Assembly (NCBI GenBank): GCA_048941285.1
Contig: JBHLNS010000010.1
Span: 20,177-84,176 of the forward strand
DNA from: Promethearchaeota archaeon
GTDB taxonomy: Archaea; Asgardarchaeota; Lokiarchaeia; Sigyniarchaeales; SOKP01
DNA length: 64,000 bases
Reading direction: 5' to 3'
The notes under the pieces are model-generated. The model saw only the letters and a list, made by a program, of their open reading frames with translations, did not search any database and had not been told where the DNA came from. Made by a program: the position numbers and the translations under genes. Positions 5,421 to 63,782 of this stretch are shown in pieces (the first letter of the stretch is position 1; the number at the start of each line of letters is the position of its first letter).

Positions 5421-5504
5421 AGAATTTTAAATTTTGTATATCTTTAGAAAATTTTCTTTTTGTAAATTTAATATTCAATTGAAGCATGAAAAGAAATATC
5501 AAAA

Positions 5505-5840: not shown

Positions 5841-5850
5841 ATAATATCAC

Positions 5851-6486: not shown

Positions 6487-6489
6487 ATA

Positions 6490-9668: not shown

Positions 9669-10502
9669 TTACCTCGATTTTTTACTTCTCCTTTTCTTTT
9701 TTTTCCTTTGGTCAATTTTCTGATTGATAGAAATATCCTCTCTCCAGCCCAGTAAATCATCTATATGAGAAGCTCCAGTAATTTTTAAATATGCTTCTTC
9801 TAAATCTTTTGCTCCGACAGACTGGATTATTTCTTTTGGAGTGCCTTCAATTTTTATCTGGCCATCAACTATGATTCCAATGATATCGCATAATTCTTCA
9901 GCTGTATCCAGAAGATGGGTGCAAATAAAAATAGTTTTATCTGCTTTCTTAGTGAGTTGAGAAATTAAATTTTTCACCATCCTAGCTGCAGCAGGATCTA
10001 GATTCGATGTAGGCTCATCTAGAAATATTATTTCAGGATCTTGAATCAATGCAGCACATAAACATACTTTTTGTTTCATCCCTCTTGAATAGCTCTCTAA
10101 AAGATCATTTTGTCGACCTTCTAAATTAAATAATTCTATAAGTTCATTAATTCTAGTGGAAATTACATCTCTTGGCAAATAGTATAACTCACCAATAAAT
10201 TCTAAAAATTCTTTTGCAGTGAGTTTAGAATATAAACCAGGAGATTCTGGCAAAAATCCACATATCATTTTGACTTTCTGACTTTCGGTAACAATATCAT
10301 ATCCTCCAACTGAAGCGTTTCCTGAAGTCTTAGATATAATGGCATTAAGAATTCTTACAGTTGTAGTTTTTCCAGCTCCATTTGGCCCTAATAGACCATA
10401 TGTTTTTCCATAAGGAATATTTAGATTTATCTTATTGACAGCAAGAATATTACCAAAGTTCTTAGTAAGATCTTGTGTTTTAATTGCCTGTGCTTTACTC
10501 AA
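9669..10502 (-). CDS. ABC transporter ATP-binding protein
   Basis: Walker A GPNGAGKTT, signature YSRGMKQKV, Walker B IIFLDEPTSNLD; TTG start with GGAGGT 7 nt upstream; unusual Lys/Arg-rich C-terminal tail (RKKKKRRSKKSR). Confidence 0.9.
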   Translation of the reverse strand: MSKAQAIKTQDLTKNFGNILAVNKINLNIPYGKTYGLLGPNGAGKTTTVRILNAIISKTSGNASVGGYDIVTESQKVKMICGFLPESPGLYSKLTAKEFLEFIGELYYLPRDVISTRINELIELFNLEGRQNDLLESYSRGMKQKVCLCAALIQDPEIIFLDEPTSNLDPAAARMVKNLISQLTKKADKTIFICTHLLDTAEELCDIIGIIVDGQIKIEGTPKEIIQSVGAKDLEEAYLKITGASHIDDLLGWREDISINQKIDQRKKKKRRSKKSR

Positions 10503-22211: not shown

Positions 22212-24248
22212 ATGAATCATATTAAGAAAAATATGAGTGAAACAGAGATTGAAGTTTATGTAAGAAGTGTTCTTAATAGAATGACTTTAGAACAAAAAGT
22301 TCAACAAATGACTGGGAATGGATTATATCTTAAGGTGTTAAAAGATGGAGGATTTGGTAAGCGGGTATATGATGCAGCTGGTTCAGATGAATTTAATATT
22401 CCTCCCTTTAAATTTACTGATGGTCCTCGCGGAGTAATAATACCAGATTCTACATGTTTTCCCGTTTCAATGGCTCGTGGAGCATCCTGGGATATAGAAT
22501 TAGAACAACGAATTGGTGATGTGATCGGAAAAGAAGTTCGTGCACATGGAGGTAATCTTTTTGGAGGTGTTTGCATTAATAATTTACGACACCCCTCTTG
22601 GGGCAGAGCTCAAGAAACTTATGGTGAAGATTCTTATCTAATAGGAGAATTTGGTGCTGCATTAACTCGTGGGGTACAAAAACACAATGTCATGGCAACT
22701 GCAAAACATTTTGCAGCAAACAGTATTGAAAATGCACGTTTTAAGGTCAATGTGAAAATGGACGAACGAACACTACGTGAGGTATATTTACCACATTTTA
22801 AAAGATGTGTAGAGGAGGGATGTGCAACAATAATGAGTGCTTATAACAAAGTTCGAGGAAAATATTGTGGTCATAACAATTATCTGTTACGTGAAATTTT
22901 AAAAAAAGAATGGAATTTTGATGGATTTGTACATTCTGATTGGATTTACGGTTTAAAAAATACTGTAGGCGGAATTACAGGTGGTTTAGATGTTGAAATG
23001 CCTCGAAAAAAATACTATAGACTTCGGAGAATACAAAATTTTCTCCAAAAAGGCAAAATATCAGAAGATATGATTGATGAAGCTGCTCGAAGAGTCATGA
23101 AAACAATCCTTCGTTATACTACCAAAGAAGATCCCCAAATATATGAACAAGATTTAATCGGATGTGAAGAGCATCTTAATGTAGCATTAGAAGCTGCAGA
23201 AAAGAGTATGGTACTCTTAAAAAATGAAAATAATATTCTACCCTTGAAAAAAGCTAAATTAAACAAATTAGGAATCTTTGGAAGATTAGCCAGATTAAGA
23301 AATACAGGTGACCATGGCAGTAGTAATGTAAATAACAAAAAAATTATTACTCCTTTAAAAGGTATAAAAAATTATTTGGGAGATTCCATTGAACTGCTTT
23401 ACAATGATGGACAAGATGAAGATAGTGTGAGAAAAATGGCTAAGGAGGTGGATATTGCTATTATAGTTGTTGGATTAACCTATAAGGATGAGGGAGAATA
23501 TATTCGTGAATTCAGAACTGGCGGAGATCGAGAGAATTTATCATTAAATGATAAGCATATCAAATTGATAGAGAATGTTGCATCTCAAAATGCAAAATCT
23601 ATTGTTATTTTAGTTGGAGGGAGTGCTATTACTATGGAAGAATGGAAAAATAAAGTTCCAGCAATACTAATGGCATGGTATTCAGGCATGGAGGGAGGGA
23701 AAGCTTTAGCAAGAATTATTTTTGGTGAGGTTAACCCAGGTGGAAAACTTCCCTTTACTATTCCTAAAGATCCAAACGATTTACCATTTTTTGATAAGAA
23801 CGCTGATGAAATTGAATATGGGTATTATCATGGATATACTCTTTTTGACAAAACAGGATTGGAACCAGCATTTCCTTTTGGTTTTGGATTAAGCTATACC
23901 GCTTTTGAATATAGTAATTTAAACGTTGATGTTAAAAATGATTCTATTCTTGCTTCTGTAGAAGTTAAAAATACCGGAAAGATAACTGGAGATGAGGTAG
24001 TTCAATTATACATAGGATTTGAAAATTCTAACATTGATCGTCCAGTAAAATTATTAAAAGGCTTTTCGCGAGTTCACATAAAACCAAATGAAGTTAAAGA
24101 TGTAAATATTGAAGTTCACATAAAGAATCTTGCATGGTATAATCCAACTTCTAAAACTTGGGAGATTGAAAAAATACAATATACACTTTATGTAGGTCCA
24201 TCATCTAAAGAAGATGAACTGTTATCTGTTCAATTTAAATTGAACTAA
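22212..24248 (+). CDS. glycoside hydrolase family 3 (beta-glucosidase / beta-hexosaminidase-type)
   Basis: KHFAANSIE, nucleophile motif GFVHSDW, and a C-terminal Fn3-like region (GKITGDEVVQLYI); no signal peptide, so probably cytoplasmic. Confidence 0.9.
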   Translation: MNHIKKNMSETEIEVYVRSVLNRMTLEQKVQQMTGNGLYLKVLKDGGFGKRVYDAAGSDEFNIPPFKFTDGPRGVIIPDSTCFPVSMARGASWDIELEQRIGDVIGKEVRAHGGNLFGGVCINNLRHPSWGRAQETYGEDSYLIGEFGAALTRGVQKHNVMATAKHFAANSIENARFKVNVKMDERTLREVYLPHFKRCVEEGCATIMSAYNKVRGKYCGHNNYLLREILKKEWNFDGFVHSDWIYGLKNTVGGITGGLDVEMPRKKYYRLRRIQNFLQKGKISEDMIDEAARRVMKTILRYTTKEDPQIYEQDLIGCEEHLNVALEAAEKSMVLLKNENNILPLKKAKLNKLGIFGRLARLRNTGDHGSSNVNNKKIITPLKGIKNYLGDSIELLYNDGQDEDSVRKMAKEVDIAIIVVGLTYKDEGEYIREFRTGGDRENLSLNDKHIKLIENVASQNAKSIVILVGGSAITMEEWKNKVPAILMAWYSGMEGGKALARIIFGEVNPGGKLPFTIPKDPNDLPFFDKNADEIEYGYYHGYTLFDKTGLEPAFPFGFGLSYTAFEYSNLNVDVKNDSILASVEVKNTGKITGDEVVQLYIGFENSNIDRPVKLLKGFSRVHIKPNEVKDVNIEVHIKNLAWYNPTSKTWEIEKIQYTLYVGPSSKEDELLSVQFKLN

Positions 24249-24264
24249 ATATGAAAAATTTTAA

Positions 24265-25284
24265 TCAAAATTTTTCAATATTTTCTTTTTTCCCAGTTTC
24301 AGAAGATTTATATAAAGCAGATATTAAACTTAGAACTTTAGAGCTTTCTTCTATTGTATTGAAATAAGGTTTATCGTGAAGTACCCATTCCCCAAATGCT
24401 TTTACTGATCGCCCAAAATGAGAAAACCCTTTTATTTCTTTTTTGGTTTTGAATTTTTTGACCCCTTTCCAAGTTAAAGATGATTTTGGCCAAGGACCTT
24501 TATAGAAACATCTTCCTTTTTTACCAAAAACTTCCAATTCAACCTTTTCTTTAAATATTCCGTAAGGGGGGTTAATAAATGTTGAATCATTAATTTGGGC
24601 ATAGATTCCGTTTTCAAATTCAATAATTCCTAAACCAAAATCTTCTACTTCGATATTCTTGAATCTGAGATTATCAGTCTTTCCCATTATTGTTTTTGGT
24701 GCGCCAAAAGCCCATATCATAATATCAAGTATATGTGAACCATGAATTAAAAGAGTTCCCCCTCCTGCAGTCTCTTTTTTAGTCCGCCAGGGACCTTTTT
24801 CAAAATATGTTTCATTTCTACTGAAGTATACATTACAATTAGCGTAATATACTTCACCTAAATGATTATTCTGTAAAGCATTAACCAAACGATAGCAATT
24901 ATGGTCATATCGATAATTATAATTAAAACCTAACTTCAAATCTTGGTATTGATTATCTAAATTCTGTATCTCCCGAGCGTCGCCTAATGATATAGAAACA
25001 GGTTTTTCACAGAGAACATGCTTTCCATTTTCAAAAGCTTGTTTTATCATTGGTTTATGAAGGTGATGAGGTGTGGCAATATATACAGCATCAAAATCCT
25101 CATTCTCATACATCTCCTCAGGATCTGTACAAGCATATCCTCCAATTTTAATAGCTTTATTTATATCTAAATCAACGGCTGCAACAATTTTTGTATTTTT
25201 TATTATTTTTGTTACAAGTTTATACATCTTAGTTATCCCACCACAGCCGATAACCCCAACTTGCAATAGATTTTTATTAGTCAT
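24265..25284 (-). CDS. Gfo/Idh/MocA family oxidoreductase
   Basis: N-terminal Rossmann VGVIGCGGI and the conserved EKP motif (HVLCEKPVS). Confidence 0.85.
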   Translation of the reverse strand: MTNKNLLQVGVIGCGGITKMYKLVTKIIKNTKIVAAVDLDINKAIKIGGYACTDPEEMYENEDFDAVYIATPHHLHKPMIKQAFENGKHVLCEKPVSISLGDAREIQNLDNQYQDLKLGFNYNYRYDHNCYRLVNALQNNHLGEVYYANCNVYFSRNETYFEKGPWRTKKETAGGGTLLIHGSHILDIMIWAFGAPKTIMGKTDNLRFKNIEVEDFGLGIIEFENGIYAQINDSTFINPPYGIFKEKVELEVFGKKGRCFYKGPWPKSSLTWKGVKKFKTKKEIKGFSHFGRSVKAFGEWVLHDKPYFNTIEESSKVLSLISALYKSSETGKKENIEKF

Positions 25285-25302
25285 TGTGCTCCACCATTAT
25301 TG

Positions 25303-25935
25303 CTATTCTTTTAGAACCCATCTAACCATATCTCTTATAAGTGTACGATAGATCTTATTCTTTAAAGATTTTGCTTGATGTCCTAATGCACAAAAAGCAA
25401 CTCTTCCCTCTCCATACGTCTTAACCCAGATTATAGGTTCAGGATTAGGATCTTTCTCATCATGATAATATCCTTCTGCTAATACTTTCATATCACCTTT
25501 CATAGAGAAATCGTGTCTATATGGTTCATCAAAGAAAGTAAAGTCTTCTAGATTAGCAATTATTGGATGAGATTTATCAAGTATTTTGATATCTATGTTG
25601 GTTTTCTTTTTATGCTTTAAAAATCTCCCTCCAATCATTTCATAATATTTAGGATGCTTCTTAAAAGAAGCTGAGGCTCCATGTAATCCAACAAATCCTT
25701 TTCCACCAGCAATAAAATCCAGTAAATTTTTTTCTTGCTTTTCAGTAAATTCACCAAATTGAGTAAAAAAGACAGTTGTGTCATAATCAAAGAAGTCTCT
25801 ATTATTGAAGATTTCTACATCTTCGTAAATATCAACAATATAATCATTTAAAACTTCCTTAAAATAAGAGGAGGTTTTTTTCTTCTTAAAATGCCTACCC
25901 CTTTGACATATCAAAATTTTCTTTTTCACAGCCAT
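25303..25935 (-). CDS. ThuA-domain protein (trehalose-utilisation-like)
   Basis: GGKGFVGLHGASASF, IGGRFLKH, GRVAFCALGH; 18 nt upstream of the Gfo/Idh/MocA gene. Confidence 0.75.
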   Translation of the reverse strand: MAVKKKILICQRGRHFKKKKTSSYFKEVLNDYIVDIYEDVEIFNNRDFFDYDTTVFFTQFGEFTEKQEKNLLDFIAGGKGFVGLHGASASFKKHPKYYEMIGGRFLKHKKKTNIDIKILDKSHPIIANLEDFTFFDEPYRHDFSMKGDMKVLAEGYYHDEKDPNPEPIIWVKTYGEGRVAFCALGHQAKSLKNKIYRTLIRDMVRWVLKE

Positions 25936-31706: not shown

Positions 31707-32216
31707 ATGAATATAAAAAGACATGAAGGTCATGAAAGGGAAGCTCCAAATTCCCATATATATCAAAGTGTATTACCTATAGTATTTATACTAATTTGGT
31801 TTTTGGATTCACAAATCTTTAGATTTTCTACTTTCTTGAATATTTTTATTCCTTTTCTGATTAGACTAATCTTATTTATTATCGTATTCGCAATATCTAT
31901 TGCTTTCATAATGCTTTCACATCGTACTCTCTTTAAATCTCATCAGCCACCTAATAAATTAATTACTGTTGGAATTCTTCGGTATATGAGGAATCCTATG
32001 TACTTCGGAATTTTACTGATATATGTCGCATTTTTGTTTTTATCCATTTCATTAATAGGAATTGGAATGTTTATCATCGTGTTCTTGGTATATAATTGGA
32101 TGGTTAACTATGAAGAGAGGATTCTTGAAGATTTATTTGGTGAAGATTACAAGGAATATAAAAGAAATGTGTCAAAATGGATTCCAAATCCATTTAAAAG
32201 AAAATTAAAGTTTTAA
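31707..32216 (+). CDS. ICMT/PEMT-family membrane methyltransferase
   Basis: RYMRNPMYFGILLIY and C-terminal YEERILEDLFGEDYKEYKRNVSKWIP. Confidence 0.75.
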   Translation: MNIKRHEGHEREAPNSHIYQSVLPIVFILIWFLDSQIFRFSTFLNIFIPFLIRLILFIIVFAISIAFIMLSHRTLFKSHQPPNKLITVGILRYMRNPMYFGILLIYVAFLFLSISLIGIGMFIIVFLVYNWMVNYEERILEDLFGEDYKEYKRNVSKWIPNPFKRKLKF

Positions 32217-33117: not shown

Positions 33118-33301
33118 AAATCAAATTTCGAAATATAATTAAATTTTATAAAAAAGGAATAAAATTTCATCTATTGTTATATATAAGATAGCTAAATTTT
33201 TATGTCTTTTAGATTTAGAATATAAAAATTTTAAAAAAAAGAAAAAATTATCATCAATTTTGTTATTTATTACATAAATATCGAATTATCTGGTTTTAGG
33301 T

Positions 33302-33565
33302 ATGAATGAGAAAAATATTATAAGATTTAACACAGCAGAAAAAGTAATTTTTTTTACAGGAATACTGTTGATTGTATTATCAATTATTAGTGAATTAAAT
33401 TTCCATTACATTCAAGGTTTCAAACCTGAATTAATGGCCCCTAACATTTTTTGGAAAGCAGAAGCAGCAGAAGTTTTTAATTCTATGAGTTTTCTTATCT
33501 TAGGTATTTTATTAATATTTATTGCTTTTAGAATTTCAAAGAGAAGAATATCTATGGAAAATTAG
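33302..33565 (+). CDS. small two-TM membrane protein
   Basis: 87 aa with two hydrophobic helices. Confidence 0.4.
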   Translation: MNEKNIIRFNTAEKVIFFTGILLIVLSIISELNFHYIQGFKPELMAPNIFWKAEAAEVFNSMSFLILGILLIFIAFRISKRRISMEN

Positions 33566-38802: not shown

Positions 38803-39186
38803 TTATACCGTAGAGAAATTGTAGATTTTCTTAATTTTTTGGCATAATTTTTTAATATTAGTAGATTTTTGATAAAAATCGATGATTCCATTTGATAATG
38901 CCTCTTCTCGTATGGAAGGATCACCACTTACCATCAAAATTTTAAAAGATTTATCTATGTTTAAAAGTTGTTTTGAAGCCTCAATGCCATTAATATAGGG
39001 TAAATGATAATCCATAAGTATTACATCAGGTTTAGGAATAGAATTTGACAATTTTTCGACAGCCTCTATCCCATTATTCGCTTTCCCTACTACTTTTAGT
39101 CCATTTAATTTAAAGATTAATGAATATAATCGTGATATACTCTTATCATCATCTACTATAAAAATCTTAATCTGTTGCCTTTCCAT
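38803..39186 (-). CDS. stand-alone response-regulator receiver (CheY-like) protein
   Basis: IFIVDDD, phospho-acceptor context VILMDYHLP, LMVSGDP, no output domain. Confidence 0.85.
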   Translation of the reverse strand: MERQQIKIFIVDDDKSISRLYSLIFKLNGLKVVGKANNGIEAVEKLSNSIPKPDVILMDYHLPYINGIEASKQLLNIDKSFKILMVSGDPSIREEALSNGIIDFYQKSTNIKKLCQKIKKIYNFSTV

Positions 39187-46367: not shown

Positions 46368-47222
46368 ATGAAAGGAATAGAAAAATTTAGGGAGAAGTTA
46401 CCAGATTATCAAGGAAAAAGAATAATTAAATTTTTAGTTGTTGTTCCAATTGTTTTTCTAATCTCCATAGTCTTTCAGTTAGTAATAGATTCACTACCAC
46501 GTATCCTCAGAGAATCCCCTATTTTGCAAATTCTGGAACCATTGACTCCCATTTTTGGTTCATTGATAATCCTAGTCATTGGCTTCTCATTGGTCTATTC
46601 ATTCTGGCATATGAGAGATAAATATTTGAAGATTAATCACAAATTAGCCTATCAAAAAGCCTTTAAATTTGTTGTGACTGGTATCCCACTAGTAATTTCA
46701 ATTGTAATCCATAGCTATTTCCCTACTGATTTAATTATGCCATACCAAGATAATAAATCTATTAGTTGGTATTTAGCGTTACCTATTTCTAATATTTTCT
46801 TCAATTATTCAATTATTTTGTTTTTTATTAGAATAACCTTATGTATTGTATTTTTTGGATTAGCATTAAGCGTAATTAGAAAGACTTTTGAAGTATTTGG
46901 CATTGATTATATGGGTTTAATCTATATCTATTACCCAGAAGATTCTAAAATTCAAAACCACGAAATTTATTCTGTATTACGTCATCCAACTTATCATTGC
47001 CTTTTACTATTTAATTTTGCGAGTTTTTTTTTAAGATTCTCTGTTTATTCTATTATCTATTTTGTAATATTTTTGATAGGGATAAATATTCATATTAGAT
47101 TGGTAGAAGAGAAAGAATTAATTCGGAGATTCGGAGAAGATTACATTAAGTATAGAAAAAGTGTACCCGCACTCTTTGTAAGAATGAAAGATTTAAAAAA
47201 GTATTTCGCTCTCATATTTTAA
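46368..47222 (+). CDS. ICMT/PEMT-family membrane methyltransferase (N-terminally extended)
   Basis: YSVLRHPTYHCLLLF and VEEKELIRRFGEDYIKYRKSVP. Confidence 0.7.
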   Translation: MKGIEKFREKLPDYQGKRIIKFLVVVPIVFLISIVFQLVIDSLPRILRESPILQILEPLTPIFGSLIILVIGFSLVYSFWHMRDKYLKINHKLAYQKAFKFVVTGIPLVISIVIHSYFPTDLIMPYQDNKSISWYLALPISNIFFNYSIILFFIRITLCIVFFGLALSVIRKTFEVFGIDYMGLIYIYYPEDSKIQNHEIYSVLRHPTYHCLLLFNFASFFLRFSVYSIIYFVIFLIGINIHIRLVEEKELIRRFGEDYIKYRKSVPALFVRMKDLKKYFALIF

Positions 47223-47234: not shown

Positions 47235-47828
47235 CTATTTTTTCTTAAATCGGGGAAAGATAGCACCAGTTTTTTTTTGATATTCCCTATATTTTTCACC
47301 AAAACGTTTTATAAGGTCTTGCTCCTCATAGTAAATCATAATTGGAACATATAATATTATATAAATACTCATTAGGACAATAAGAAACCATGAATTCACC
47401 ATAAAAGCTATTGCAATAAATAATGGGAATTCTCCAAGCGATTGAGGATGCCTTATATAATTATATATCCCCCCATACATCTGTGTATCTTGAGATGGTT
47501 GGATAGTTTCTTGACCTGCATCTCTTACTCCTTTTATAAGTATAATTAAACAGGGAATGGTAATTAATACCCCAATTACAATACCAATTATATAATTTGT
47601 GTGTACTTGCCAACTAACTAAAGAAATCGGAAACATGCTCCATAGTGTCAAATTTATCACAATTATAAACTCAAAAAAACTCGCAAAAATTCGTAATTTC
47701 ATACATTCTCTCCAAGCACGATCGCCCTTTGTTTGTTCTCTCTTTATTGGTTGAATACTTAAAATATAAAGGAAACTAAAAAGAAAGAGGCTTAATAATA
47801 ATGATCCAAAATTTATCCAATCAAACAT
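47235..47828 (-). CDS. ICMT/PEMT-family membrane methyltransferase
   Basis: GIYNYIRHPQSLGEFPLF and YEEQDLIKRFGEKYREYQKKTGAIFP; convergent with the previous paralogue, 12-nt gap. Confidence 0.7.
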   Translation of the reverse strand: MFDWINFGSLLLSLFLFSFLYILSIQPIKREQTKGDRAWRECMKLRIFASFFEFIIVINLTLWSMFPISLVSWQVHTNYIIGIVIGVLITIPCLIILIKGVRDAGQETIQPSQDTQMYGGIYNYIRHPQSLGEFPLFIAIAFMVNSWFLIVLMSIYIILYVPIMIYYEEQDLIKRFGEKYREYQKKTGAIFPRFKKK

Positions 47829-48102: not shown

Positions 48103-49281
48103 ATGCTTTTAAATGATTTATCGAATATAATAGGAGAAACGGCAGAAGATTGCATAATTTATAAGAAGTTGTGTAAAGAAGTTGAATATGATTTTGATAA
48201 TACTTTAAAAGAATCAACTTTAGGAGAAATTCCATTTGTTCCATGGAGTTTTTTTAAACTTTCGAATAATAGATTTAAAGATTTATTGCGAGGTAATACT
48301 TTTGAAAATCTAAAATATTGGATGGAATCTTCTTCAACTTGTGGAGACCCTAGTATCGTGGGAAGATTGGATAATGACATTGAAGTCTTAAAAGCTAATT
48401 ATAATGAGGTTTTTAATTCATTTTCCCAAAAAGATAAAGTGAATAATTTAATCTTATTTGCACCAGGAATGAGAATCATTAATAAAATACGACACAATTT
48501 TTACGGTATAAATGCTTTTCTTCTTTATAAAAGCATTGTAGACATATGGGAAGGAAAAAATATTAATTATTTACTACAATTCTTTTTGGGTAAAACTATA
48601 GGAAAAATGTTAACCACATTTAAAGCTCGAGCAGTAATTGGGATTAATGGAAAATTACTCAAATATGAACTTGATCGAGTTGAACAAAAAAAAATTCCTA
48701 CCATAATGGCTAATTCTCCACTATGGATGCATAAAGTGTTAAATGATTATTATCTTAAGGAGAAAAAAACTTTTGATCTAGGTGATCATTTTTATATTAT
48801 TACGGGGGGTGGGGGATGGGACGGAACAAAAGGGCGTGTTAAATTAGGATATAGTGTAAAAAAACCTGAATTTGTTGAACAAATGTGTAATATGTTCAAC
48901 ATTACCCCCGATAATTTTTGTGATAATTTTGCAGCTACTGAAAGTCCAATGGCATGTGGTGGTCATTGGTCAAACCACTATAACGATTTTATACTCCACG
49001 TTAATAATGCCCAGGGTCGAATAGTAATTCGTGATATTCAAACTTCAGAACCTATAAGAAAAACAGGAGAGCCTGGTCTTTTGGAATTAATAACTCCATA
49101 TGGAGTGGAGGGCTATGCAGGATTAGCTGTTTTACTAGATGATATTGTTCAAGTAGAAAATTGGGAAAGATGCCCAGAATGTAATCGAGAAGGCCCAATT
49201 TTTCGAGTATTGGGACGATTAACACCTTCTATCGGAAAAGGATGCAGTTCATTATTTACTCTAGATGCATATAATTTGTAA
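48103..49281 (+). CDS. LuxE-family acyl-protein synthetase / adenylate-forming enzyme
   Basis: Collinear with LuxE landmarks: IPFVPWSFFK, SSSTCGDPS (SSGT-like), YIITGGGGW, EPGLLELITP, KGCSSLFT. Confidence 0.6.
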   Translation: MLLNDLSNIIGETAEDCIIYKKLCKEVEYDFDNTLKESTLGEIPFVPWSFFKLSNNRFKDLLRGNTFENLKYWMESSSTCGDPSIVGRLDNDIEVLKANYNEVFNSFSQKDKVNNLILFAPGMRIINKIRHNFYGINAFLLYKSIVDIWEGKNINYLLQFFLGKTIGKMLTTFKARAVIGINGKLLKYELDRVEQKKIPTIMANSPLWMHKVLNDYYLKEKKTFDLGDHFYIITGGGGWDGTKGRVKLGYSVKKPEFVEQMCNMFNITPDNFCDNFAATESPMACGGHWSNHYNDFILHVNNAQGRIVIRDIQTSEPIRKTGEPGLLELITPYGVEGYAGLAVLLDDIVQVENWERCPECNREGPIFRVLGRLTPSIGKGCSSLFTLDAYNL

Positions 49282-52903: not shown

Positions 52904-53554
52904 ATGATTATAAATAGAATTAAGAAATTGATCGCTGTTTTATTTTTAATCCTATTTATTAATATAGGTTTTATCTTATCTGCTATTGAAGTATATTTTA
53001 ATTTGGGTACTTTAATCATAATAATCAGTTTTACATTGATATTAAGCCTTGATATTAGTATTAGGCCAATAACTCAGAAAAGAGATCAGTTTAAATATGC
53101 CACGCTTTCAGTATTGTTATTTTTACTACTTCCATTGTTATCTATTATTCCGTATTTAGAATTCTACTTTCTAACACAGCGATATTTCATAATATGGAAT
53201 AATTTTTTATTATATTTTGTTGGAATGGTTTTATTATTACTTGGTGGGATAATTTTGATTTATAGCAGACTTATCCTAGGAAAGCTTGCATCTAGTAAAA
53301 TTGTTATTGAACAAAATCATATTTTAATAAACAAAGGAATTTATAAATATATTAGACATCCGATATATTTAGGGATGCTTCTTATTTTTTTTGGTTATGC
53401 GTTATCTTTCAAATCTGTTTTTAGTCCTTTTTCTTTTCTAATTTTATTCTTCCTTATTTTTAATAATCGCATGAATTTGGAGAGGAATATGAATCTTATA
53501 TTAATAAAACTAAGAGACTTATTCCTTATATATATTGAAATTTTAAATGAGTAA
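52904..53554 (+). pseudogene. ICMT/PEMT-family methyltransferase with a frame-disrupted C-terminus
   Basis: KGIYKYIRHPIYLGMLLIFFGYAL is intact. The canonical C-terminal block EFGEEYESYINKTKRLIPYIY* is encoded in a different frame (53473..53538), and the EE..L element expected before it is missing. Confidence 0.55.
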
Positions 53555-56656: not shown

Positions 56657-57478
56657 CTAAAGAAAAAAATCTTGATAAAGTTCAGCCTTGAGATCAACTG
56701 AAAATTTTTGTAAATCAGTTATACCATGTTCGATAAGAATTTCTTCATCAATAAAGAAATTTCCCGTGTAATGTTCACTTGGTTTTGTAAAAATAATATA
56801 AGCTGCATCAGCTACGATTTCTGGAGTCCTTGAATGCTTAATTGTGGATTCCCCACCTAACAAATTTTTCACAGCTGCAGTTGCTATAGGAGTGCGAGGC
56901 CATAAAGCATTAACAGCAATCCTATCTTTCTTAAATTCTTCAGCCATTCCTAAAACACACATACTCATTCCATATTTAGAAATTGTATATGCTACGTTAT
57001 TTTTAAACCATTTTGAGTCTAAATTTAAAGGAGGTGATAAATTTAATATATGAGGGTTTTCTGCTTTTTGCAAGTAAGGGATACATAACTTTGAGCATAA
57101 AAAAGTTCCTCTAACATTAACTGAAAACATTAGATCAAATCGTTTCATCTCAAGCTCTAAGGTGGGTGATAGATTTATGGCACTTGCGTTATTTACAAGA
57201 ATATCAATACCCCCAAATTCTTTTACGGTAGCTTCAATGGCAATTTGAACCTGATCTTCATATCTGATATCTGTTATACAAGGGAGAGCATTACCTCCCG
57301 CTGAGATTATATCTTCAACGGCGCTATATACTGTTCCTGGCAATTTTGGATGAGGATCTTTCGTTTTCGCAACTACTGCTATATTTGCTCCATCACGAGC
57401 TGCTCTTAAGGCAATAGCTTTGCCAATTCCCCTACTGGCACCAGTAATGAAGAGAGTTTTCCCTTTTAAAGATTTCAT
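56657..57478 (-). CDS. SDR family oxidoreductase (HSDL2-like)
   Basis: TGASRGIGKAIA, NNAS, YTISK, PHPKLPGTVYS loop. Confidence 0.85.
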   Translation of the reverse strand: MKSLKGKTLFITGASRGIGKAIALRAARDGANIAVVAKTKDPHPKLPGTVYSAVEDIISAGGNALPCITDIRYEDQVQIAIEATVKEFGGIDILVNNASAINLSPTLELEMKRFDLMFSVNVRGTFLCSKLCIPYLQKAENPHILNLSPPLNLDSKWFKNNVAYTISKYGMSMCVLGMAEEFKKDRIAVNALWPRTPIATAAVKNLLGGESTIKHSRTPEIVADAAYIIFTKPSEHYTGNFFIDEEILIEHGITDLQKFSVDLKAELYQDFFL

Positions 57479-57615
57479 TTAAATCAAGCAAATTTTCTTA
57501 TAATTAATTTTAGTTAACTTTGTTATTTTCTATTTTAACTAATCTTTTATATTTTATAGTAATAATTCATAAGAAAAAGGTTTAAACACATTTTTAACAT
57601 ATTTTACTCATAATA

Positions 57616-58104
57616 ATGGCAGATTTGAATCCCGAAAAATTGCATGTTGTTTATAAAGATTCGGTTGATGCTGATAGATTAGTTTTGCCTCGTAAATATA
57701 CATTAACACATTCTGATTCAACTGGAGAGCTTTTCCTTACAATAGGAATTGAATATGATTATGAACAAATTTCAAGTTTTTATACTCGATTTATGAGAGA
57801 CGAGGTATTAGCTGAATGGCAAAAGAAGGAAAAAGATTTTGAACTCCATTTCTACTTACATGTGAGTGGTGGTTTTTGCTTCGGATGGCCAAGATTACGA
57901 GATAGAATCTTTCGATATCACCTACCCCTTGTTTTTGAAGCAGTTAGATATGGAGATAAGAAATTATTTGAAGAAATGCCAGAAATCAAGGATTCACAAA
58001 TTATTGTACATTTTCAATCGAATAGAAAGAAATATAATCTTATTGAAAATTTCGGACAATTTTGCGAGATCCCCGTTAAGAATTATAGAATATTCACTCA
58101 ATAG
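57616..58104 (+). CDS. Staygreen (SGR) family protein, Mg-dechelatase homologue
   Basis: Collinear with plant SGR landmarks: LPRKYTLTHSDSTGELFLTIG, RDEVLAEW, LHFYLHVSGG, RDRIFRYHLPLVFEAVRYGDKKLFEEMPEI, IIVHFQSN..YNLIENFG. Confidence 0.8.
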   Translation: MADLNPEKLHVVYKDSVDADRLVLPRKYTLTHSDSTGELFLTIGIEYDYEQISSFYTRFMRDEVLAEWQKKEKDFELHFYLHVSGGFCFGWPRLRDRIFRYHLPLVFEAVRYGDKKLFEEMPEIKDSQIIVHFQSNRKKYNLIENFGQFCEIPVKNYRIFTQ

Positions 58105-58190
58105 GTTTAAGATTTATAATTGTTTAACCTAACCTGATTAATAAATTATTAACATTGCCTACTTAAGATTCAATTTTCATATCTAGTAAT

Positions 58191-58796
58191 ATGAATGAAA
58201 TAAGTAAATTAGTTGAACAAGGATATAATAAAATTGCTGATGAATATTATACTTATAGAGATATTAACAAATTTGATAACGAGCTAAGAAAATTTGCGTC
58301 TCTCCTTCCACATAATGCTCATATATTAGATGTAGGATGTGGAGCCGGTATTCCTACTGCCAAATTCTTAGTAGAAAAAGGGATTCAAGTTACAGGAATT
58401 GATCTATCTCAAACAATGTTGAACCTAGCTCGAGAGAATGTACCTAATGCTCAATTTATTAAAATGGATATGAATGAACTTGAATTTAAAGAAAATACGT
58501 TTAATGGAATTATAAGTGTATATACTTTATTCCATGTTCCTAAGAAGAATCATTTCGAAATATTCAAAAGATTTCATAAAATATTGAAGCCTGGCGGTAT
58601 TTTGTTAATGAACACCGGTATCTTAGAATCAGAAGGAACCAGCATTTTTTTCGGTGTTCCAATGTTTTGGAGTAATCTCAATCCAAAAACAACTCTCGAT
58701 CTCGTAAAAAGTGCAGGATTCTCTATAATTTCTGAAGCGATTTTAGAAAGAGGTGGAGAATATCAATATTGGATTTTTGGAAAAAAAATTAAATGA
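58191..58796 (+). CDS. class I SAM-dependent methyltransferase
   Basis: ILDVGCGAGIPTAKF motif I, and LKPGGILLMN. Confidence 0.8.
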   Translation: MNEISKLVEQGYNKIADEYYTYRDINKFDNELRKFASLLPHNAHILDVGCGAGIPTAKFLVEKGIQVTGIDLSQTMLNLARENVPNAQFIKMDMNELEFKENTFNGIISVYTLFHVPKKNHFEIFKRFHKILKPGGILLMNTGILESEGTSIFFGVPMFWSNLNPKTTLDLVKSAGFSIISEAILERGGEYQYWIFGKKIK

Positions 58797-58894
58797 TAAT
58801 TTTTCTTTTACGATTTTTATCTTTTTAGATATTTATTCTATAAATTAAAGAAAGAATTTTTTTTAATAACTATAACTTCTATTTATCCAGAATT

Positions 58895-60130
58895 ATGATA
58901 TTATTTAGTATTAGAAATGCATTTAGGAAAAAATTAATCGCGATACTTGCTGCTATTGGTGTCGGATTTGGATTAATGTTAGTTTTTGTGATTGGTGCAT
59001 TCACAGCAGGCGTTACTGCTCAGTTTCAAGATAGTCTTACAAGAACTTTGGGTATTGTAAGTGTTACTGAGAAATTTCAACAAGGAGCAGAGAGTCATCT
59101 TCCATTAAGCCTTCCTCAAGAGATTCAAGATACTCCAAATGTTGGGGAATATATATTAAGCTATAATGTTGAAACTCAAACTCCAGATTATTTTACTTCA
59201 GAATATTGGGGTAATTTAAGTACTTTTGGAGATAGACTCATTTTAAAAGGACTTAATTCTACAATAGATAGTAATTGGGAAGGTGTTACAACAAAAATTA
59301 TCGAAGGAAGAACTTTTGATCCTAAGAAAAATGAAACTATAATAGATTCCCGATTATTAGATATTGCAGATTTTCCAGTATCAATAGGCAGTAATATTAC
59401 ACTCAGTTTGGATTTAAGTGGAAATAAAACTTCAATTCTAACAATAGTAGGGATATATGAACAGGAAGACACAGGAGCTCCCTCATTTGTTCCCAGAGAT
59501 TATTATATTTATACAGATATGCAGACTACGTGGAATTTTCTCAATATAGCAGGTGAAACAAGTAATAAATACACTTTGATATATCTTAGATTTAATGTTA
59601 AAGGGCATAAAGATACAGATGAGTTGGTAAAAAGGATTAATGATTATTCAGAAGATGATGGATATGCGCCGTTATATGTGACAGCATTTTCACTTGCTAC
59701 TTTTCTTCAGGAAATAGAGGATACATTTAGGATCTTTGACTCATTCACAGCAGTTTTAGGCTTTATTGTTGTTCTTTCAGGAGGAATGGCAATAATTGTA
59801 ACTCAATTGATGTCGGTTTCATCTCGTATGAAAGAATTTGCTATTCTTAAAGCAACAGGATGGAAAAATCGTCACATTTTCAAGGATGTAATTTATGAAT
59901 CTCTAACACTAGGCATCTTGGGAGCCGTTATTGGATTATCGATCGGTATTTTGCTTATTTTCCTCTTAGGTGGAGGTTTATTGCCATTTGGAGGTGTTTC
60001 AGCTATGGTTACATGGAGAGGTGTTATAGAAATAATTGTCTATGCTCTCGGCTTAGGTATTGTTGGAGGATTATATCCAGGCATAAAAGCATCCAGAGTA
60101 AGACCCGTAGTGGTCTTAAAAGGAGAATAG
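58895..60130 (+). CDS. ABC transporter permease, FtsX/MacB type
   Basis: N-terminal TM, a large periplasmic-type domain, and a C-terminal FtsX-like 3-TM bundle ending GLYPGIKASRVRPVVVLK. Confidence 0.8.
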   Translation: MILFSIRNAFRKKLIAILAAIGVGFGLMLVFVIGAFTAGVTAQFQDSLTRTLGIVSVTEKFQQGAESHLPLSLPQEIQDTPNVGEYILSYNVETQTPDYFTSEYWGNLSTFGDRLILKGLNSTIDSNWEGVTTKIIEGRTFDPKKNETIIDSRLLDIADFPVSIGSNITLSLDLSGNKTSILTIVGIYEQEDTGAPSFVPRDYYIYTDMQTTWNFLNIAGETSNKYTLIYLRFNVKGHKDTDELVKRINDYSEDDGYAPLYVTAFSLATFLQEIEDTFRIFDSFTAVLGFIVVLSGGMAIIVTQLMSVSSRMKEFAILKATGWKNRHIFKDVIYESLTLGILGAVIGLSIGILLIFLLGGGLLPFGGVSAMVTWRGVIEIIVYALGLGIVGGLYPGIKASRVRPVVVLKGE

Positions 60131-60134
60131 TGAG

Positions 60135-60851
60135 GTGTTAATGATTGAACTTATAAAGTTAAAAGATGTTAGTAAAATTTATGGTGAAGAAAGAACTACA
60201 ATTAAAGCATTGGATCGTATTAACCTAGAAATTGAAGAGGGAAATATTATTACGGTAATGGGACCTTCGGGAAGCGGGAAAAGTACTTTATTAAATATAC
60301 TTGGAGCTATGGATAAACCCACATCTGGAGAAGTTTTGGTTAATAACATTGAGATAGGAGGATTGCCTGAAAGAAAATTGTCCAATTATCGCAAATCCCA
60401 AGTAGGGTTTATTTTTCAGAATTTTTATTTATTGCCAAATCTGAATGTCATAGAAAACGTTCTTGTCCCTATAGTCCCCTTTGGGATTAAAGAAAAAGAC
60501 CGTAAAAAAGCGCAAGAATTATTAGAAATCGTTGGATTAGGTGAAAGAGCGAATAGTAAAGTAAGTAAGCTCTCGGGCGGGGAATCTCAAAGAGTTGCTG
60601 TTGCTCGTGCATTAATTAATAATCCCAAGGTAATATTAGCTGACGAACCAACGGGAAATTTAGATACTGAAACCGGAAAATCAATAGTAGAGCTCTTAAT
60701 AAAATTAGCTGAAAGTGGAAAAACTTTGATTATTGTTACGCATGATCCCAGAGTTGTATCATTAGTTGCTAACCATCCACTCGGTAAAAACATTTGGATA
60801 AAGGATGGGCAATTAAGCGATCAACCTACCTACGATCTAAATTGCTGGTAA
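60135..60851 (+). CDS. ABC transporter ATP-binding protein (MacB/LolD-like)
   Basis: GPSGSGKST, LSGGESQRVAVARAL, ILADEPTGNLD; 4-nt gap after the permease. Confidence 0.9.
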   Translation: MLMIELIKLKDVSKIYGEERTTIKALDRINLEIEEGNIITVMGPSGSGKSTLLNILGAMDKPTSGEVLVNNIEIGGLPERKLSNYRKSQVGFIFQNFYLLPNLNVIENVLVPIVPFGIKEKDRKKAQELLEIVGLGERANSKVSKLSGGESQRVAVARALINNPKVILADEPTGNLDTETGKSIVELLIKLAESGKTLIIVTHDPRVVSLVANHPLGKNIWIKDGQLSDQPTYDLNCW

Positions 60852-61041
60852 GATATCAATAGTTTTGAAAAACTCATTTTTTTGATGAATTTTAAATTTT
60901 CCTTATTTATTTTAATATTTTACATTTTCACATAAGGTAAATTTTCATTTAAAAACCTTGAATTAATAAATTATGTTGAAAATAATTTTATGATAAAATG
61001 TCTGAATAAAAAATAAATAAAATTAAAAAAATGTGATATAA

Positions 61042-61839
61042 ATGGAAGGAAGACTAGATTCTGACATAACATTTCCTTATTTGCGAAAATTTAATTTAAT
61101 AATGGGTTTTTTACACCTTATCCAAGCTAGTTTAATGTTAACCTTAGCCCTGGTTGTTCCTCAAATAAGGGATTTTGAGCTCCCAATTACCACTGCATTT
61201 TTAGAATACGATCCTATGTTAGAGATATTGATCCCAAATTATACTCAGTTGACTACAATACCAATAGGACCTATTGTATCCTCATTTCTTTTCATATCGT
61301 CAATAGCTCATTTTTTAATCGTATTACCACGAGTTAATGATTTCTATAATGAAAAATTGAAACTAGGAATCAATTATTTTCGATGGTTTGAATATGCTTT
61401 AAGTTCATCCGTAATGATTGTCCTTATTTCGATGTTTTTTGGAGTTTATGACTTAGGAAGCTTAATTGTTATTTTCTCAATTAATGCTACGATGAATTTA
61501 TTGGGATTGATGATGGAATTGCATAATCAAACAACCGAGAAAACTAGATGGACAGCTTTCTACATCGGGGTTTTTGCAGGAATTATCCCATGGGTCATAA
61601 TTTTAATCTATTTGTTTGGAAATGGTAATATTGGTGAAATTCCGTGGTTTGTCTGGGCTATTTTTGGTTCGTATTTCTTTTTCTTTAATACCTTTCCAAT
61701 CAATATGATTTTACAGTATAAGAAAACCGGTAAATGGAGAGATTATTTGTATGGGGAAAGAGGATATATACTTCTGAGCTTAATTTCTAAAAGTTTGTTA
61801 GCATGGCTAGTGTTTGCAGGTGTCTTACAACCAGCATAA
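61042..61839 (+). CDS. heliorhodopsin
   Basis: 265 aa, 7 TM. It carries FLHLIQ (His25), IAHFLIV (His90), FRWFEYALSSSVMIVLI (Glu117), IIPWVIILIY, LQYKKTGKWRDYLYGERGYILLSLISKSLLAW (Lys250), and ends ...GVLQPA. It is collinear with HeR-48C12 as I recall it. Confidence 0.85.
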   Translation: MEGRLDSDITFPYLRKFNLIMGFLHLIQASLMLTLALVVPQIRDFELPITTAFLEYDPMLEILIPNYTQLTTIPIGPIVSSFLFISSIAHFLIVLPRVNDFYNEKLKLGINYFRWFEYALSSSVMIVLISMFFGVYDLGSLIVIFSINATMNLLGLMMELHNQTTEKTRWTAFYIGVFAGIIPWVIILIYLFGNGNIGEIPWFVWAIFGSYFFFFNTFPINMILQYKKTGKWRDYLYGERGYILLSLISKSLLAWLVFAGVLQPA

Positions 61840-61963: not shown

Positions 61964-62815
61964 ATGGAAAAAGAAGAACTATTACATTGTTTAAATTGTG
62001 GCAGAAAATTAAGTGCTGAGAATAAAGTTAGCAATAATTTTTGCGCTGAATGCGTTCTAGGTTTAGATTTTCGAATAACTGATTTAAATCATAAAGAAAT
62101 TGATATTTATCTTCAGAAGATATTAGATTTTTTCATTTCAGATGTAAATGTCGCTTTTAACAAAGATCCTGCAGCAAAGTCTCTTATCGAGGTATTAACA
62201 AGTTATCCAGGAATTAAAGCTGTTCTATTATACCGTATAGCACACTTTTTTTGGAAAATGGGAATGCCCTTTATTCCAAGGTATATATCTGAGATCGCAA
62301 GAGAGTTAACAGGCATAGAAATTCATCCAGGTGCAGAAATAGGAAAAGATTTCTTTATAGATCATGGAACTGGTTGTGTTATTGGTGAAACTACTGTTAT
62401 AGGAAATAATGTTACAATATTTTCAGGTGTAGTTTTAGGAGGCACAAATATTGATCCTGTAAAAAGGCATCCTACTTTAGGTAATAATGTAGTTGTAGGG
62501 ACTGGAGCTAAAATTCTTGGACCTGTTAATGTTGGAGATAATGTAAAAATTGGTGCAAATTCTGTTGTAGTAACTGATGTACCACCAAATTCAGTAGTAG
62601 TGGGTGTACCCGGGAAAATTATTTCGAGAGAAGGTGAAAAAATAGAAAAAATAGATTTACGGCACGGTGATTTACCTGATCCCCTAACACTCACAATAAA
62701 AACTTTGGATAAAAGAATAAAAGAATTGGAGAACAGAGTTCTTGATCAAACGGAAAAGGAAAAGAAGAAAGATGATATTGAAATTTACTATGGAGAATAT
62801 GGTCATGGAATTTAG
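61964..62815 (+). CDS. cysE: serine O-acetyltransferase with an N-terminal zinc ribbon
   Basis: DPAAKSLIEVLTSYPGIKAVLLYRIAH, TGIEIHPGAEIG..FFIDHGTGCVIGET, and the hexapeptide-repeat region KRHPTLGNNVVVGTGAKILG; N-terminal CLNCG..CAEC; C-terminal ...YGHGI. Confidence 0.85.
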   Translation: MEKEELLHCLNCGRKLSAENKVSNNFCAECVLGLDFRITDLNHKEIDIYLQKILDFFISDVNVAFNKDPAAKSLIEVLTSYPGIKAVLLYRIAHFFWKMGMPFIPRYISEIARELTGIEIHPGAEIGKDFFIDHGTGCVIGETTVIGNNVTIFSGVVLGGTNIDPVKRHPTLGNNVVVGTGAKILGPVNVGDNVKIGANSVVVTDVPPNSVVVGVPGKIISREGEKIEKIDLRHGDLPDPLTLTIKTLDKRIKELENRVLDQTEKEKKKDDIEIYYGEYGHGI

Positions 62816-62855: not shown

Positions 62856-63782
62856 ATGGGAATATATAATAATATAATTGAGACCATTGGCAAAACTCCG
62901 CTAGTGAAATTGAATAAAATTGCTGAGAATATTAAACCTTCAATATATGCAAAATTAGAATATTTCAATCCAGGAGGCAGTGTGAAGGATAGAATAGCAA
63001 TGTCAATGATTGAAAGAGCGGAGGAAGAAGGATTGATATCTCAAGATACTGTTATAGTAGAACCCACTTCAGGTAATACAGGAATTGGATTAGCCCTTGT
63101 TTGTGCAGCTAAGGGATATAGATTAATCCTTACAATGCCAGATAGCATGTCTATAGAAAGACGGCAGATTTTAAAAGCATTTGGGGCAGAATTAGAATTA
63201 ACTCCTGCTTCGGGAGGCATGAAAGGTGCTATCGAAAAAGCAGAAGAGCTGTCAAAAGAAAGAGGGAAAGTTTTTATTCCACAACAATTTAAAAATTTGG
63301 CTAACCCTGAAATTCATAGAAGAACTACTGCTAAAGAGATATTTAATGATTTAGCGGGACAAATTGATGGGTTTGTAGCGGGTGTAGGAACAGGTGGAAC
63401 AATTACTGGAGTTGGCGAGATTCTAAAGGATAGAGTAGGAGCAAGATTAAAAGTATATGCCGTAGAACCCAAAGATTCGCCTGTATTGTCTGGAGGTAGT
63501 CCTGGCCCCCATAAAATTCAAGGAATTGGAGCGGGATTTATTCCAGAAGTGTTAAACACAATGATATACGATAAAGTAATAACAGTAGATTATGAAGATG
63601 CTTTAGCTACAGCTAGAAAACTTGCACGCTTGGAAGGGATTTTTGTTGGAATATCCTCTGGAGCGAATGCGTGGGCTACTTTATATGAAGTTTCAAAGGA
63701 TTTCGGAAAAGGAGAAAATATAGTAGTAATTTTACCTGATACAGGAGAAAGATATCTTACGACTGATGTATTTAAATTCTAA
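62856..63782 (+). CDS. cysK: cysteine synthase A (O-acetylserine sulfhydrylase)
   Basis: GGSVKDR PLP-lysine motif, [22 protein letters not shown]. Confidence 0.9.

Follow-up and report, generated by a model that had tools for sequence, protein, structure and literature searches.

What does a heliorhodopsin do in an Asgard archaeon, and with which proteins does it work? The question is raised by a heliorhodopsin (HeR) gene in a 64,000-nucleotide stretch of contig JBHLNS010000010.1 of a Promethearchaeota archaeon; the whole stretch is referred to as the window. HeR function is known for few partners, and the native role of the Stay-Green (SGR) family, homologs of the chlorophyll Mg-dechelatase, in non-photosynthetic prokaryotes is of interest for the evolution of chlorophyll breakdown; a recurrent pairing of HeR and SGR genes in two domains of life merges both into a single testable question. 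The explanation that we favor, with a probability of roughly 0.55, combines a functional HeR of the type found in Thermoplasmatales archaeon SG8-52-1 (TaHeR), signaling via partner proteins, with the adjacent Stay-Green gene cluster as the likeliest client. The HeR protein adds little by itself, and its neighborhood matters more.

An original prediction, made from the DNA letters, had considered the genomic context of this HeR informative. This held in so far as the context contains the Stay-Green cluster, which had been overlooked. The novelty was overrated, since HeRs from Asgard archaea are known (reported for Heimdallarchaeia since 2018, bioRxiv 10.1101/385732) and the protein is already annotated.

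A heliorhodopsin of the TaHeR group

The HeR gene spans positions 61042-61839 of the plus strand and codes for 265 amino acids plus a stop codon, with coordinates and protein exactly as originally predicted. The Pfam profile PF18761 (Heliorhodopsin) matched residues 14-262 with an E value of 1.1e-97 and 326.6 bits (cut-off 26.7), covering all 242 profile positions (1-242), and the NCBIfam HeR equivalog NF038020 scored 319 bits (cut-off 100). Besides PF18761, the Pfam search gave no significant family and no Bac_rhodopsin match. A sequence search of the PDB yielded six matches at E ≤ 1, every one a solved HeR, with TaHeR on top (6is6, E 2.4e-68) and the founding actinobacterial HeR-48C12 (6su3) at E 4.6e-51; the identities derived from the alignments amounted to 49% with full-length TaHeR and 41% with HeR-48C12. 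An identical protein is deposited in GenBank under accession number MFX1378645.1 as "MAG: heliorhodopsin HeR [Promethearchaeota archaeon]" (MAG, metagenome-assembled genome). On every feature examined, including profile matches, PDB alignments and an AlphaFold2 model, the window gene is a genuine, canonical HeR of the TaHeR group; it is already correctly named in GenBank and, as a protein, is an ordinary family member. The full-length PF18761 and NF038020 matches thus bear out the identity originally assigned to this open reading frame (ORF).

The alignments with HeR-48C12 and TaHeR, which together with the profile search had been named beforehand as checks, placed each of the four residues singled out in the original prediction at its proposed site. 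Lys250 (codon 61789-61791, plus strand as for all codons given here; helix G, motif LISKSLLAW) aligns with the retinal Schiff-base lysine K241 of HeR-48C12 and K238 of TaHeR, and Glu117 (codon 61390-61392; helix C, motif FRWFEYALSSS) with the Schiff-base counterion, E107 and E108, respectively. The histidine pair of the Schiff-base cavity, His25 (codon 61114-61116) and His90 (codon 61309-61311), corresponds to H23 and H80 of HeR-48C12 and to H23 and H82 of TaHeR. H25, H90, E117 and K250 were invariant across 32 aligned HeR homologs with identities down to 58%. Kovalev et al. named 36 residues of HeR-48C12 as structurally important (PMC7049168), and 33 of the residues in this list are identical in the window HeR. 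Conserved positions comprise S246 (S237 in HeR-48C12), S86, S121, N111 (N101 in HeR-48C12), R114, W115 and Y118, and further key residues are E159, Q225, Y235, E239 and W255; the three changes are R91→F101, I142→N152 and Q213→M222, the last of which gives the same Met as in TaHeR. The single Glu counterion E117, the Ser (S246) replacing a second carboxylate and the H25/H90 pair are all present. Judged by alignment, the retinal pocket is complete (K250, E117, H25/H90, S246, S86, S121 and N111), and the gene very probably encodes a functional, retinal-binding HeR.

Predicted fold and membrane topology

An AlphaFold2 model was built on the 32-homolog alignment and compared with the PDB using Foldseek. 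The model (mean predicted local distance difference test score 82.6; predicted template modeling [TM] score 0.78) comprises seven long predicted helices and a predicted β-hairpin in the AB loop at residues 46-74 (strands 46-57 and 62-74). The top ten PDB entries were HeR structures throughout (TM 0.79-0.91), and the superposition on TaHeR 6is6 gave TM values of 0.86/0.91; type-1 rhodopsin structures reached only 0.45-0.62 at E > 0.04.

For the topology, the loops were assigned by hand on the basis of hydropathy and the predicted model, and charges were then counted according to the positive-inside rule. The N-terminus together with the BC, DE and FG loops carries 13 Lys and Arg residues, and the opposite side (AB, CD and EF loops plus C-terminus) one such residue and seven Asp and Glu residues. 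Within the FG loop, which contributes K227, K228, K231, R233 and R240, the residues K227, K231 and R240 align with the conserved cytoplasmic K218, K222 and R231 of HeR-48C12, for which a positive-inside, negative-outside charge pattern has been described. Because the positive charges cluster on the N-terminus/BC/DE/FG side, the charge distribution indicates an N-in, i.e. inverted, topology.

The same data bear on whether the protein might move ions, either as a light-gated proton transporter like viral V2HeR3 or as an inward pump of the schizorhodopsin type. Schizorhodopsins are often encountered in Loki- and Thorarchaeia, and a viral HeR has been shown to transport protons (PMC9448325). However, sequence and model fit the non-transporting TaHeR/48C12 group, with the low similarity to type-1 structures given above; HeR is the sole significant family in Pfam and NCBIfam, and both the hydrophobic extracellular half and the pocket residues of HeR-48C12 are conserved, so that a transport function is scarcely credible. 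The identity as a schizorhodopsin or another type-1 rhodopsin was ruled out by the missing Bac_rhodopsin match, the low TM values and the N-in charge pattern.

Heliorhodopsin and Stay-Green genes are neighbors in several lineages

Upstream of the HeR gene, the window contains an SGR family gene (57616-58104, plus strand) whose product of 162 amino acids matched PF12638 over its full length (E 1.8e-48; 164.6 bits, cut-off 27). The closest characterized counterpart considered here is AbSGR-h from Anaerolineae bacterium SM23_63, an active Mg-dechelatase (PMC8531759, PMC11006732), in which D34 and D62 are essential to activity and R26, Y28 and T29 are structural (PMC8531759). The window SGR retains the T-H-S-D-S-T and R-D-E motifs that hold D34 and D62 (AbSGR-h numbering), and R26, Y28, T29, T31, H32, S33, D34, T36 and the R-D-E motif were invariant in the SGR alignment. 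By these residues the catalytic site is intact, and the protein is a Mg-dechelatase homolog.

Transcribed divergently from the SGR gene is a gene for a short-chain dehydrogenase (SDR; 56657-57478, minus strand) of the PRK08278/HSDL2-like type (NCBIfam NF006133, 441 bits; PDB 3kvo, HSDL2, E 1e-101). On the plus strand, SGR is followed by a class I S-adenosylmethionine-dependent methyltransferase (MT; 58191-58796, Pfam Methyltransf_25/11), for which the NCBIfam search gave solely generic class I matches, all under equivalog cut-offs, and no specific function was assigned. Next come the permease of a MacB/FtsX-type ATP-binding cassette (ABC) transporter (58895-60130, plus strand; Pfam FtsX plus MacB_PCD) and an ABC transporter ATPase of the MacB/LolD/FtsE type (60135-60851, plus strand; Pfam ABC_tran, E 1e-34; NCBIfam LolD/MacB-like), whose stop codon is separated from the HeR start on the same strand by an AT-rich gap of 190 bp.

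The linkage was followed in 80 HeR loci, sampled as one genome per species, plus the contigs of three close homologs (L numbers denote loci). ORFs of the fetched loci were searched with the window proteins, and linkage was defined as an SGR gene within 10 kb of HeR. Of 21 distinct Asgard HeR loci, 13 showed it, with no fewer than five gene orders: SDR / HeR SGR MT (L001, L015), HeR SDR / SGR MT (L004, L005), SDR / SGR MT HeR (L006, L009, L014), SGR HeR (L012), and SDR / SGR MT ABC ABC HeR (window), with looser orders in L017, L019, L047 and L054, in which an MFS (major facilitator superfamily) transporter or a photolyase intervenes. The SDR ortholog (>500 bits) adjoins SGR in most Asgard loci, and the MT ortholog (~350 bits) lies 3' of SGR in L001, L004, L006, L009, L014, L017, L054, L166 and L168; the Asgard SGR gene is flanked by SDR, MT and either an MFS or a MacB-type ABC transporter.

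This conserved Asgard cluster, with SDR on the minus strand divergent from SGR and MT and with optional additions, namely an ORF of 81 amino acids and either an MFS transporter or the MacB-type ABC pair (56657-60851 in the window), was seen in L001, L004-L006, L009, L012, L014, L015, L017, L019, L054 and L166-L171. The Stay-Green family as such is very common in Asgard archaea, with >120 clusters at ≥63% identity. A conserved ORF of ~81-88 amino acids without a Pfam match is directly 5' of HeR in L004/L005 (L004 186-452) and directly 3' of MT in L166/L168 (L166 8216-8461, L168 7891-8139); in the window, it is found 28 kb away (33278-33562).

Outside the Asgard archaea, pairing with SGR was observed in two of 63 HeR loci, both from Clostridium: in Clostridium frigoris DSM 14204 (L056) and a Clostridium MAG (L072), SGR starts ~50 bp past the HeR stop codon on the same strand. 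As a control, the same pipeline recovered the HeR-photolyase pairing, which has experimental support, in 11 of the 63 non-Asgard loci. C. frigoris, in which HeR→SGR occupies positions 9136-10510 of L056, is a cultured species. L072 contains two HeR paralogs with 94% identity, one preceding a DNA photolyase and the other preceding SGR (1174-3595, 5315-6668).

The search was also carried out from the SGR side by a metagenome scan with the SGR alignment (80 loci). Three of these (L152, L154, L165; 56-64% G+C) carried HeR immediately 5' of SGR in the same orientation, and a fourth organism with HeR→SGR at a gap of 17 bp was found via protein P0262, for which the contig collection lists 79 blocks; over the high-GC loci with this same-strand arrangement (L152, L154, L165, L174-176), the gaps ranged from 17 to ~170 bp. 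The HeRs of L154 and L165 were nearest (~60%) to Chloroflexota HeRs, and the lineage is here termed Chloroflexota-like. A neighbor-joining tree of 100 SGRs placed those linked to HeR in three deep clades, one each from Clostridium, Asgard archaea and high-GC bacteria, and the HeRs of each linked group were most similar to those of their own phylum, which argues against a single HeR-SGR cassette passed between lineages.

The gene content around SGR showed parallels in both domains, in that genes for a transporter and an NAD(P) oxidoreductase repeatedly accompany SGR. As a rule, the high-GC bacteria have an MFS transporter gene 5' of SGR (13 loci; among the SGR/MFS loci are L165 3509-7803, L154 324-3172, L172 3505-5465, L173 1746-4106, L128, L132-L134, L139, L145, L147, L153, L157 and L161). 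An oxidoreductase of the NmrA/epimerase-DUF2867 type is also found 5' of SGR in L165, L172 and L173, overlapping SGR by 4 bp in L172, and the MFS and SGR genes of L154 and L165 have HeR between them. Photolyase genes (PF00875) lie inside three Asgard islands (L019 1-10723, L047 2-4886, L054 9974-14184), in L054 in the order HeR - photolyase - SGR - MT, and in or beside the island of L032; their presence in the Asgard HeR/SGR islands suggests a light-response gene island. Two low-GC, Firmicutes-like loci (L106 8001-9200, L116 1438-2679) encode the SGR domain in fusion with ~250 C-terminal amino acids, a region that shows an FG-GAP-like 'GDVxGDGxPD' motif and gave no Pfam match.

SGR is absent from the published lists of HeR neighbors that were found (PMC11109279; bioRxiv 10.1101/2021.02.01.429150), and a literature search including the supplements of PMC11109279 revealed no relevant paper joining HeR with Stay-Green, SGR or dechelatase; the search covered one library and is not proof of novelty. 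The association of the HeR and Stay-Green neighborhoods, which is moderately supported, appears to be unreported.

A conserved element upstream of the heliorhodopsin gene

The gap between the ABC ATPase and HeR genes contains a conserved 37-nt element at 60948-60984 (plus strand), 58-94 nt before the HeR ATG. It has the consensus TTTAAAAAyCTTGAATTAATAAATTATGTTGAAAATA, opens with the TATA-like TTTAAAAA, and contains the imperfect direct repeat TTGAAnnAATAAnTTATG twice. The element is single-copy in the window, with 0 chance occurrences expected, and at ≤5 mismatches it was seen in 1.8 Mb of fetched DNA solely 5' of HeR, at eight Asgard loci and behind any upstream gene (window; L006 9906-9942; L007, L008 and L016, each 9904-9940; L011 2735-2771; L012 1339-1375; L014 2948-2984). 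It is probably a promoter plus a regulator site, or a 5' leader. Because the element stays with HeR whatever gene precedes, the Asgard HeR gene is probably transcribed on its own and relocates as a promoter-plus-gene unit. A scan for σ70 promoters and intrinsic terminators gave counts equal to those of shuffled controls, the underlying model being a bacterial one and inapplicable to archaea.

The element also bears on the reading that HeR specifically modulates the upstream MacB-type ABC transporter, as OcHeR does with the exporter OmrDE, and that Stay-Green is irrelevant. The ABC ATPase gene ends 190 bp 5' of HeR on the same strand, the ABC-HeR order recurs in L011, and ABC transporters are among the ten recurrent classes of HeR neighbors, with one pair validated in vitro and in vivo (PMC11109279). 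However, the arrangement is confined to the window and this one close relative, the transporter is of the MacB/FtsX type and not a heterodimeric exporter like OmrDE, and HeR has its own upstream element. In addition, L166/167 have the ABC pair after SGR-MT but no HeR, and the pair therefore belongs to the SGR cluster. An exclusive link of HeR with the ABC transporter is thus improbable.

Source of the chromophore

Domains of phytoene synthase, phytoene desaturase, lycopene cyclase, Blh/BCD and RPE65-type enzymes were not detected by Pfam in window ORFs of ≥100 amino acids, ~15 of which were without any Pfam match. The statement that the 64 kb contain no retinal-synthesis genes was thereby substantiated at the Pfam level for ORFs of this size, the scan covering the 64-kb window only. 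A full de novo retinal pathway was reported for one of 381 HeR-only genomes, and HeRs are thought to take up retinal from outside (bioRxiv 10.1101/2021.02.01.429150). A window without retinal genes is therefore expected, because HeR-only genomes nearly always lack the full pathway.

Under these circumstances the SDR, possibly together with SGR and MT, might supply the chromophore as a retinol dehydrogenase that makes retinal from scavenged retinol. Genes of the adh_short family near HeRs have been proposed to encode retinol dehydrogenases (Bulzu et al., bioRxiv 10.1101/2021.02.01.429150), SDRs are a recognized class of HeR neighbors (PMC11109279), and the SDR gene lies 40-190 bp from HeR in L001, L004, L005 and L015; de novo retinal genes were not detected in the window. 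Against this stand the affiliation to the PRK08278/HSDL2-like subfamily without known retinoid activity and the finding that the SDR remains paired with SGR where HeR is absent; moreover, nothing ties SGR or MT to retinoid chemistry. We consider chromophore supply by these enzymes rather unlikely, about one chance in ten in our judgment. The assignment of the SDR as a retinol dehydrogenase or chlorophyll b reductase was rejected as unsupported, as its close relatives are HSDL2-like/PRK08278 proteins, which say nothing about the substrate.

Genes downstream of heliorhodopsin

The HeR gene is followed on the plus strand by genes for a serine acetyltransferase (CysE, 61964-62815; cysE equivalog at residues 59-218) and a cysteine synthase (CysK, 62856-63782). 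CysE-CysK after HeR on the same strand was also found in L011, L012 and L014, which would fit a regulation of cysteine synthesis by HeR; the binding of a HeR to another biosynthetic enzyme, glutamine synthetase, is a precedent (cited in PMC11109279). However, CysE-CysK hold the same place next to SDR-SGR in L170/L171, where HeR is missing, and lie 4 kb off in L009, which makes such a regulation very improbable. CysE and CysK were therefore rejected as HeR clients and are attributed to ancestral synteny into which HeR was inserted. The window CysE has an N-terminal extension of ~55 amino acids with a CxxC…CxxC zinc-ribbon-like motif (CLNCGRKLSAENKVSNNFCAEC) and a charged C-terminal tail.

Proposed function of heliorhodopsin and the Stay-Green cluster

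Glutamine synthetase, photolyase and the ABC exporter OmrDE are documented HeR partners (PMC11109279), and Bulzu et al. list histidine kinases, adh_short and others as HeR neighbors (bioRxiv 10.1101/2021.02.01.429150). Extrapolating from characterized family members, K250 of the window HeR would bind scavenged all-trans retinal and E117 would act as counterion; the protein would be non-pumping, with a slow photocycle and a long-lived photointermediate. It would signal by direct contact of its Lys/Arg-rich cytoplasmic loops with partner proteins. By analogy with these systems, a role of the protein as a sensor acting via partner proteins is reasonably probable. In this lineage the likeliest partners would be the products of the adjacent cluster, i.e. 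SGR, SDR, MT, the exporter (MacB-type ABC here, MFS in relatives) and, in some relatives, photolyase; the gene neighborhood on which it is based makes the Stay-Green cluster a tentative candidate for the client of the window HeR.

In the mechanism that we propose, SGR would strip Mg from chlorophyll-type pigments taken up from the detritus of phototrophs, SDR and MT would modify the demetallated pigments, and the MacB-type ABC or MFS transporter would expel them, with HeR supplying the light signal to this pigment-handling module. A light sensor is sensible for such a module because chlorophyll-type pigments are harmful only in light, and a HeR that raises the activity of an ABC exporter in light is a precedent (PMC11109279). 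In its widest form, HeR and prokaryotic SGR could be an unrecognized functional pair, a photoprotection module shared by Asgard archaea, Clostridia and Chloroflexota-like bacteria, which we put forward as a possibility with the odds against it. Its parts would be the SGR Mg-dechelatase, an NAD(P) oxidoreductase, MT, an MFS or MacB exporter and sometimes photolyase, a composition that is just as doubtful as the pairing itself. Should this hold, the Asgard HeR and the SGR homologs of non-photosynthetic prokaryotes would gain a physiological role, and non-phototrophs living on phototroph detritus would disarm and expel chlorophyll-type photosensitizers under light. It would also bear on the ecology of Asgard archaea, in particular on a life in lit, phototroph-rich sediments or mats.

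Several observations weigh against the Stay-Green cluster as the client of HeR. Pheophytin, the product of the dechelatase, remains a photosensitizer. The Mg-dechelatase activity of prokaryotic SGR has been called promiscuous, with an unknown natural substrate (Obata et al., as cited in PMC8531759 and bioRxiv 10.64898/2026.03.19.712979), and the activities of prokaryotic SGR homologs vary widely (PMC8531759). On the DNA level, co-transcription of HeR with the ABC gene is unlikely because of the conserved 5' element that HeR has for itself and the 190-bp gap, and no motif was found in common between the HeR upstream region and the SDR/SGR intergenic region, nor elsewhere in the window. In the closed chromosome CP070831, HeR (L016) and SGR (P0191) are >10 kb apart, and in assembly GCA_048938005 they are on separate contigs (L007 and L168, respectively). 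The window order SDR / SGR MT (81 aa) MacB ABC occurs without HeR in L166/167, as does SDR / SGR … CysE CysK in L170/171. In bacteria the pairing is rare, as the numbers of three in 80 SGR loci and two in 63 non-Asgard HeR loci given above show, and HeR is missing from the surroundings of the SGR genes most closely related to that of Clostridium (L086-L091). HeR neighborhoods are diverse across taxa (PMC11109279; bioRxiv 10.1101/2021.02.01.429150). Finally, the Asgard loci come from related MAGs, and part of the signal is therefore inherited synteny.

The main rival explanation is an ordinary, functional HeR photosensor whose partners are encoded elsewhere or have yet to be recognized. The proximity of SGR would then reflect synteny inherited among related Promethearchaeota genomes in a region prone to rearrangement, and the few bacterial adjacencies would be due to chance. 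In agreement with this explanation, HeR moves with its 5' element as a unit into several contexts, including L007, L008 and L016, where no SGR is present within 10 kb; the same cluster exists without HeR, and the Asgard HeRs are 76-92% identical and hence not independent samples. However, a frequently relocating gene should lose a chance linkage, yet HeR is found 0-4 kb from SGR in five orders, and the immediate same-strand arrangement HeR→SGR recurs in Clostridium and in the Chloroflexota-like lineage; by our own estimate, chance adjacency of two rare genes in a genome of ~3,000 genes is expected at ~7e-4. We regard an absent link as a serious contender that falls somewhat short of even odds. 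The repeated closeness of HeR to SGR despite its relocation can be read as selection for proximity or as the mark of a recombination-prone region, and the data do not separate the two. The combined explanation, a TaHeR-type sensor signaling to partners with the Stay-Green cluster as its likeliest client, is the one we retain.

Host and further features of the window

The Asgard-like genome context asserted in the original prediction was corroborated by the MAGs of the nearest homologs, the identical GenBank protein and a Ras-family GTPase. The closest HeR homologs (76-92% identity) all come from Promethearchaeota-type Asgard MAGs, which the submitters labeled variously as Promethearchaeota, Lokiarchaeia, Hermodarchaeota or Thorarchaeota. 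The window Stay-Green protein (MFX1378641.1) and ABC permease (MFX1378643.1) share a GenBank contig of 85,551 bp with MFX1378645.1. The window has a G+C content of ~30% and encodes at 2857-3414 (minus strand) a Ras-family small GTPase, an Asgard eukaryotic-signature protein; small GTPases of this family are a typical Asgard signature. Scans of the window for tRNAs and with Rfam were empty.

A set of genes for the utilization of pectin and plant or algal glycans, which would suit an organism feeding on detritus from plants or algae, is present in the window; encoded at 15432-17432, 22212-24248 and 24265-25935 are a rhamnogalacturonan lyase of family 11, a GH3 glycosidase carrying an Fn3-like domain, an oxidoreductase of the GFO/IDH/MocA type and a ThuA-like protein. 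The PEMT/ICMT family of membrane methyltransferases is represented by four paralogs (31707-32216, 46368-47222, 47235-47828 and 52904-53554), and members of this family are also found near the SDR/SGR cluster in relatives (L001 8292-8936, L166 2220-2717). Further genes code for a stand-alone response-regulator receiver domain (38803-39186, minus strand) and a LuxE-type acyl-protein synthetase (48103-49281, plus strand).

Comparison with known systems

HeR-photolyase pairs, a neighbor group described in PMC11109279, resemble the window locus in that HeR lies beside a light-related soluble enzyme, with the difference that no photolyase was found by the Pfam scan in window ORFs of ≥100 amino acids. 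With AbSGR-h, the window SGR shares the length class and identical T-H-S-D-S-T and R-D-E motifs; it differs in its archaeal host and in that its dechelatase role is predicted from sequence.

OcHeR enhances the ABC multidrug exporter OmrDE in light, and helR and the transporter genes form one operon (PMC11109279). Features that the window has in common with this system are the same-strand proximity of a HeR gene and an ABC exporter gene and the positive charge of the cytoplasmic loops. OmrDE is heterodimeric with fused transmembrane and ATPase domains, whereas the window transporter consists of a MacB/FtsX-type permease and an ATPase encoded separately. The window HeR adjoins the ABC pair, but the 190-bp AT-rich gap holds a HeR-specific element, and ABC pairs of the window type occur without HeR in relatives.

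HeR-48C12 (PDB 6su3, 6uh3) has a bacterial host and another gene neighborhood, whereas its residues K241, E107, H23, H80, S237, N101, E149 and W246 are all kept in the window HeR. The closest known system is TaHeR (PDB 6is6, 7clj, 7u55). The host of TaHeR belongs to another archaeal phylum, the AB loop of the window HeR is six residues longer and its EF loop has a three-residue insertion, and the window HeR is known from its sequence and a predicted model; both proteins are archaeal, and H23, H82, E108, S234 and K238 of TaHeR are all conserved in the window HeR.

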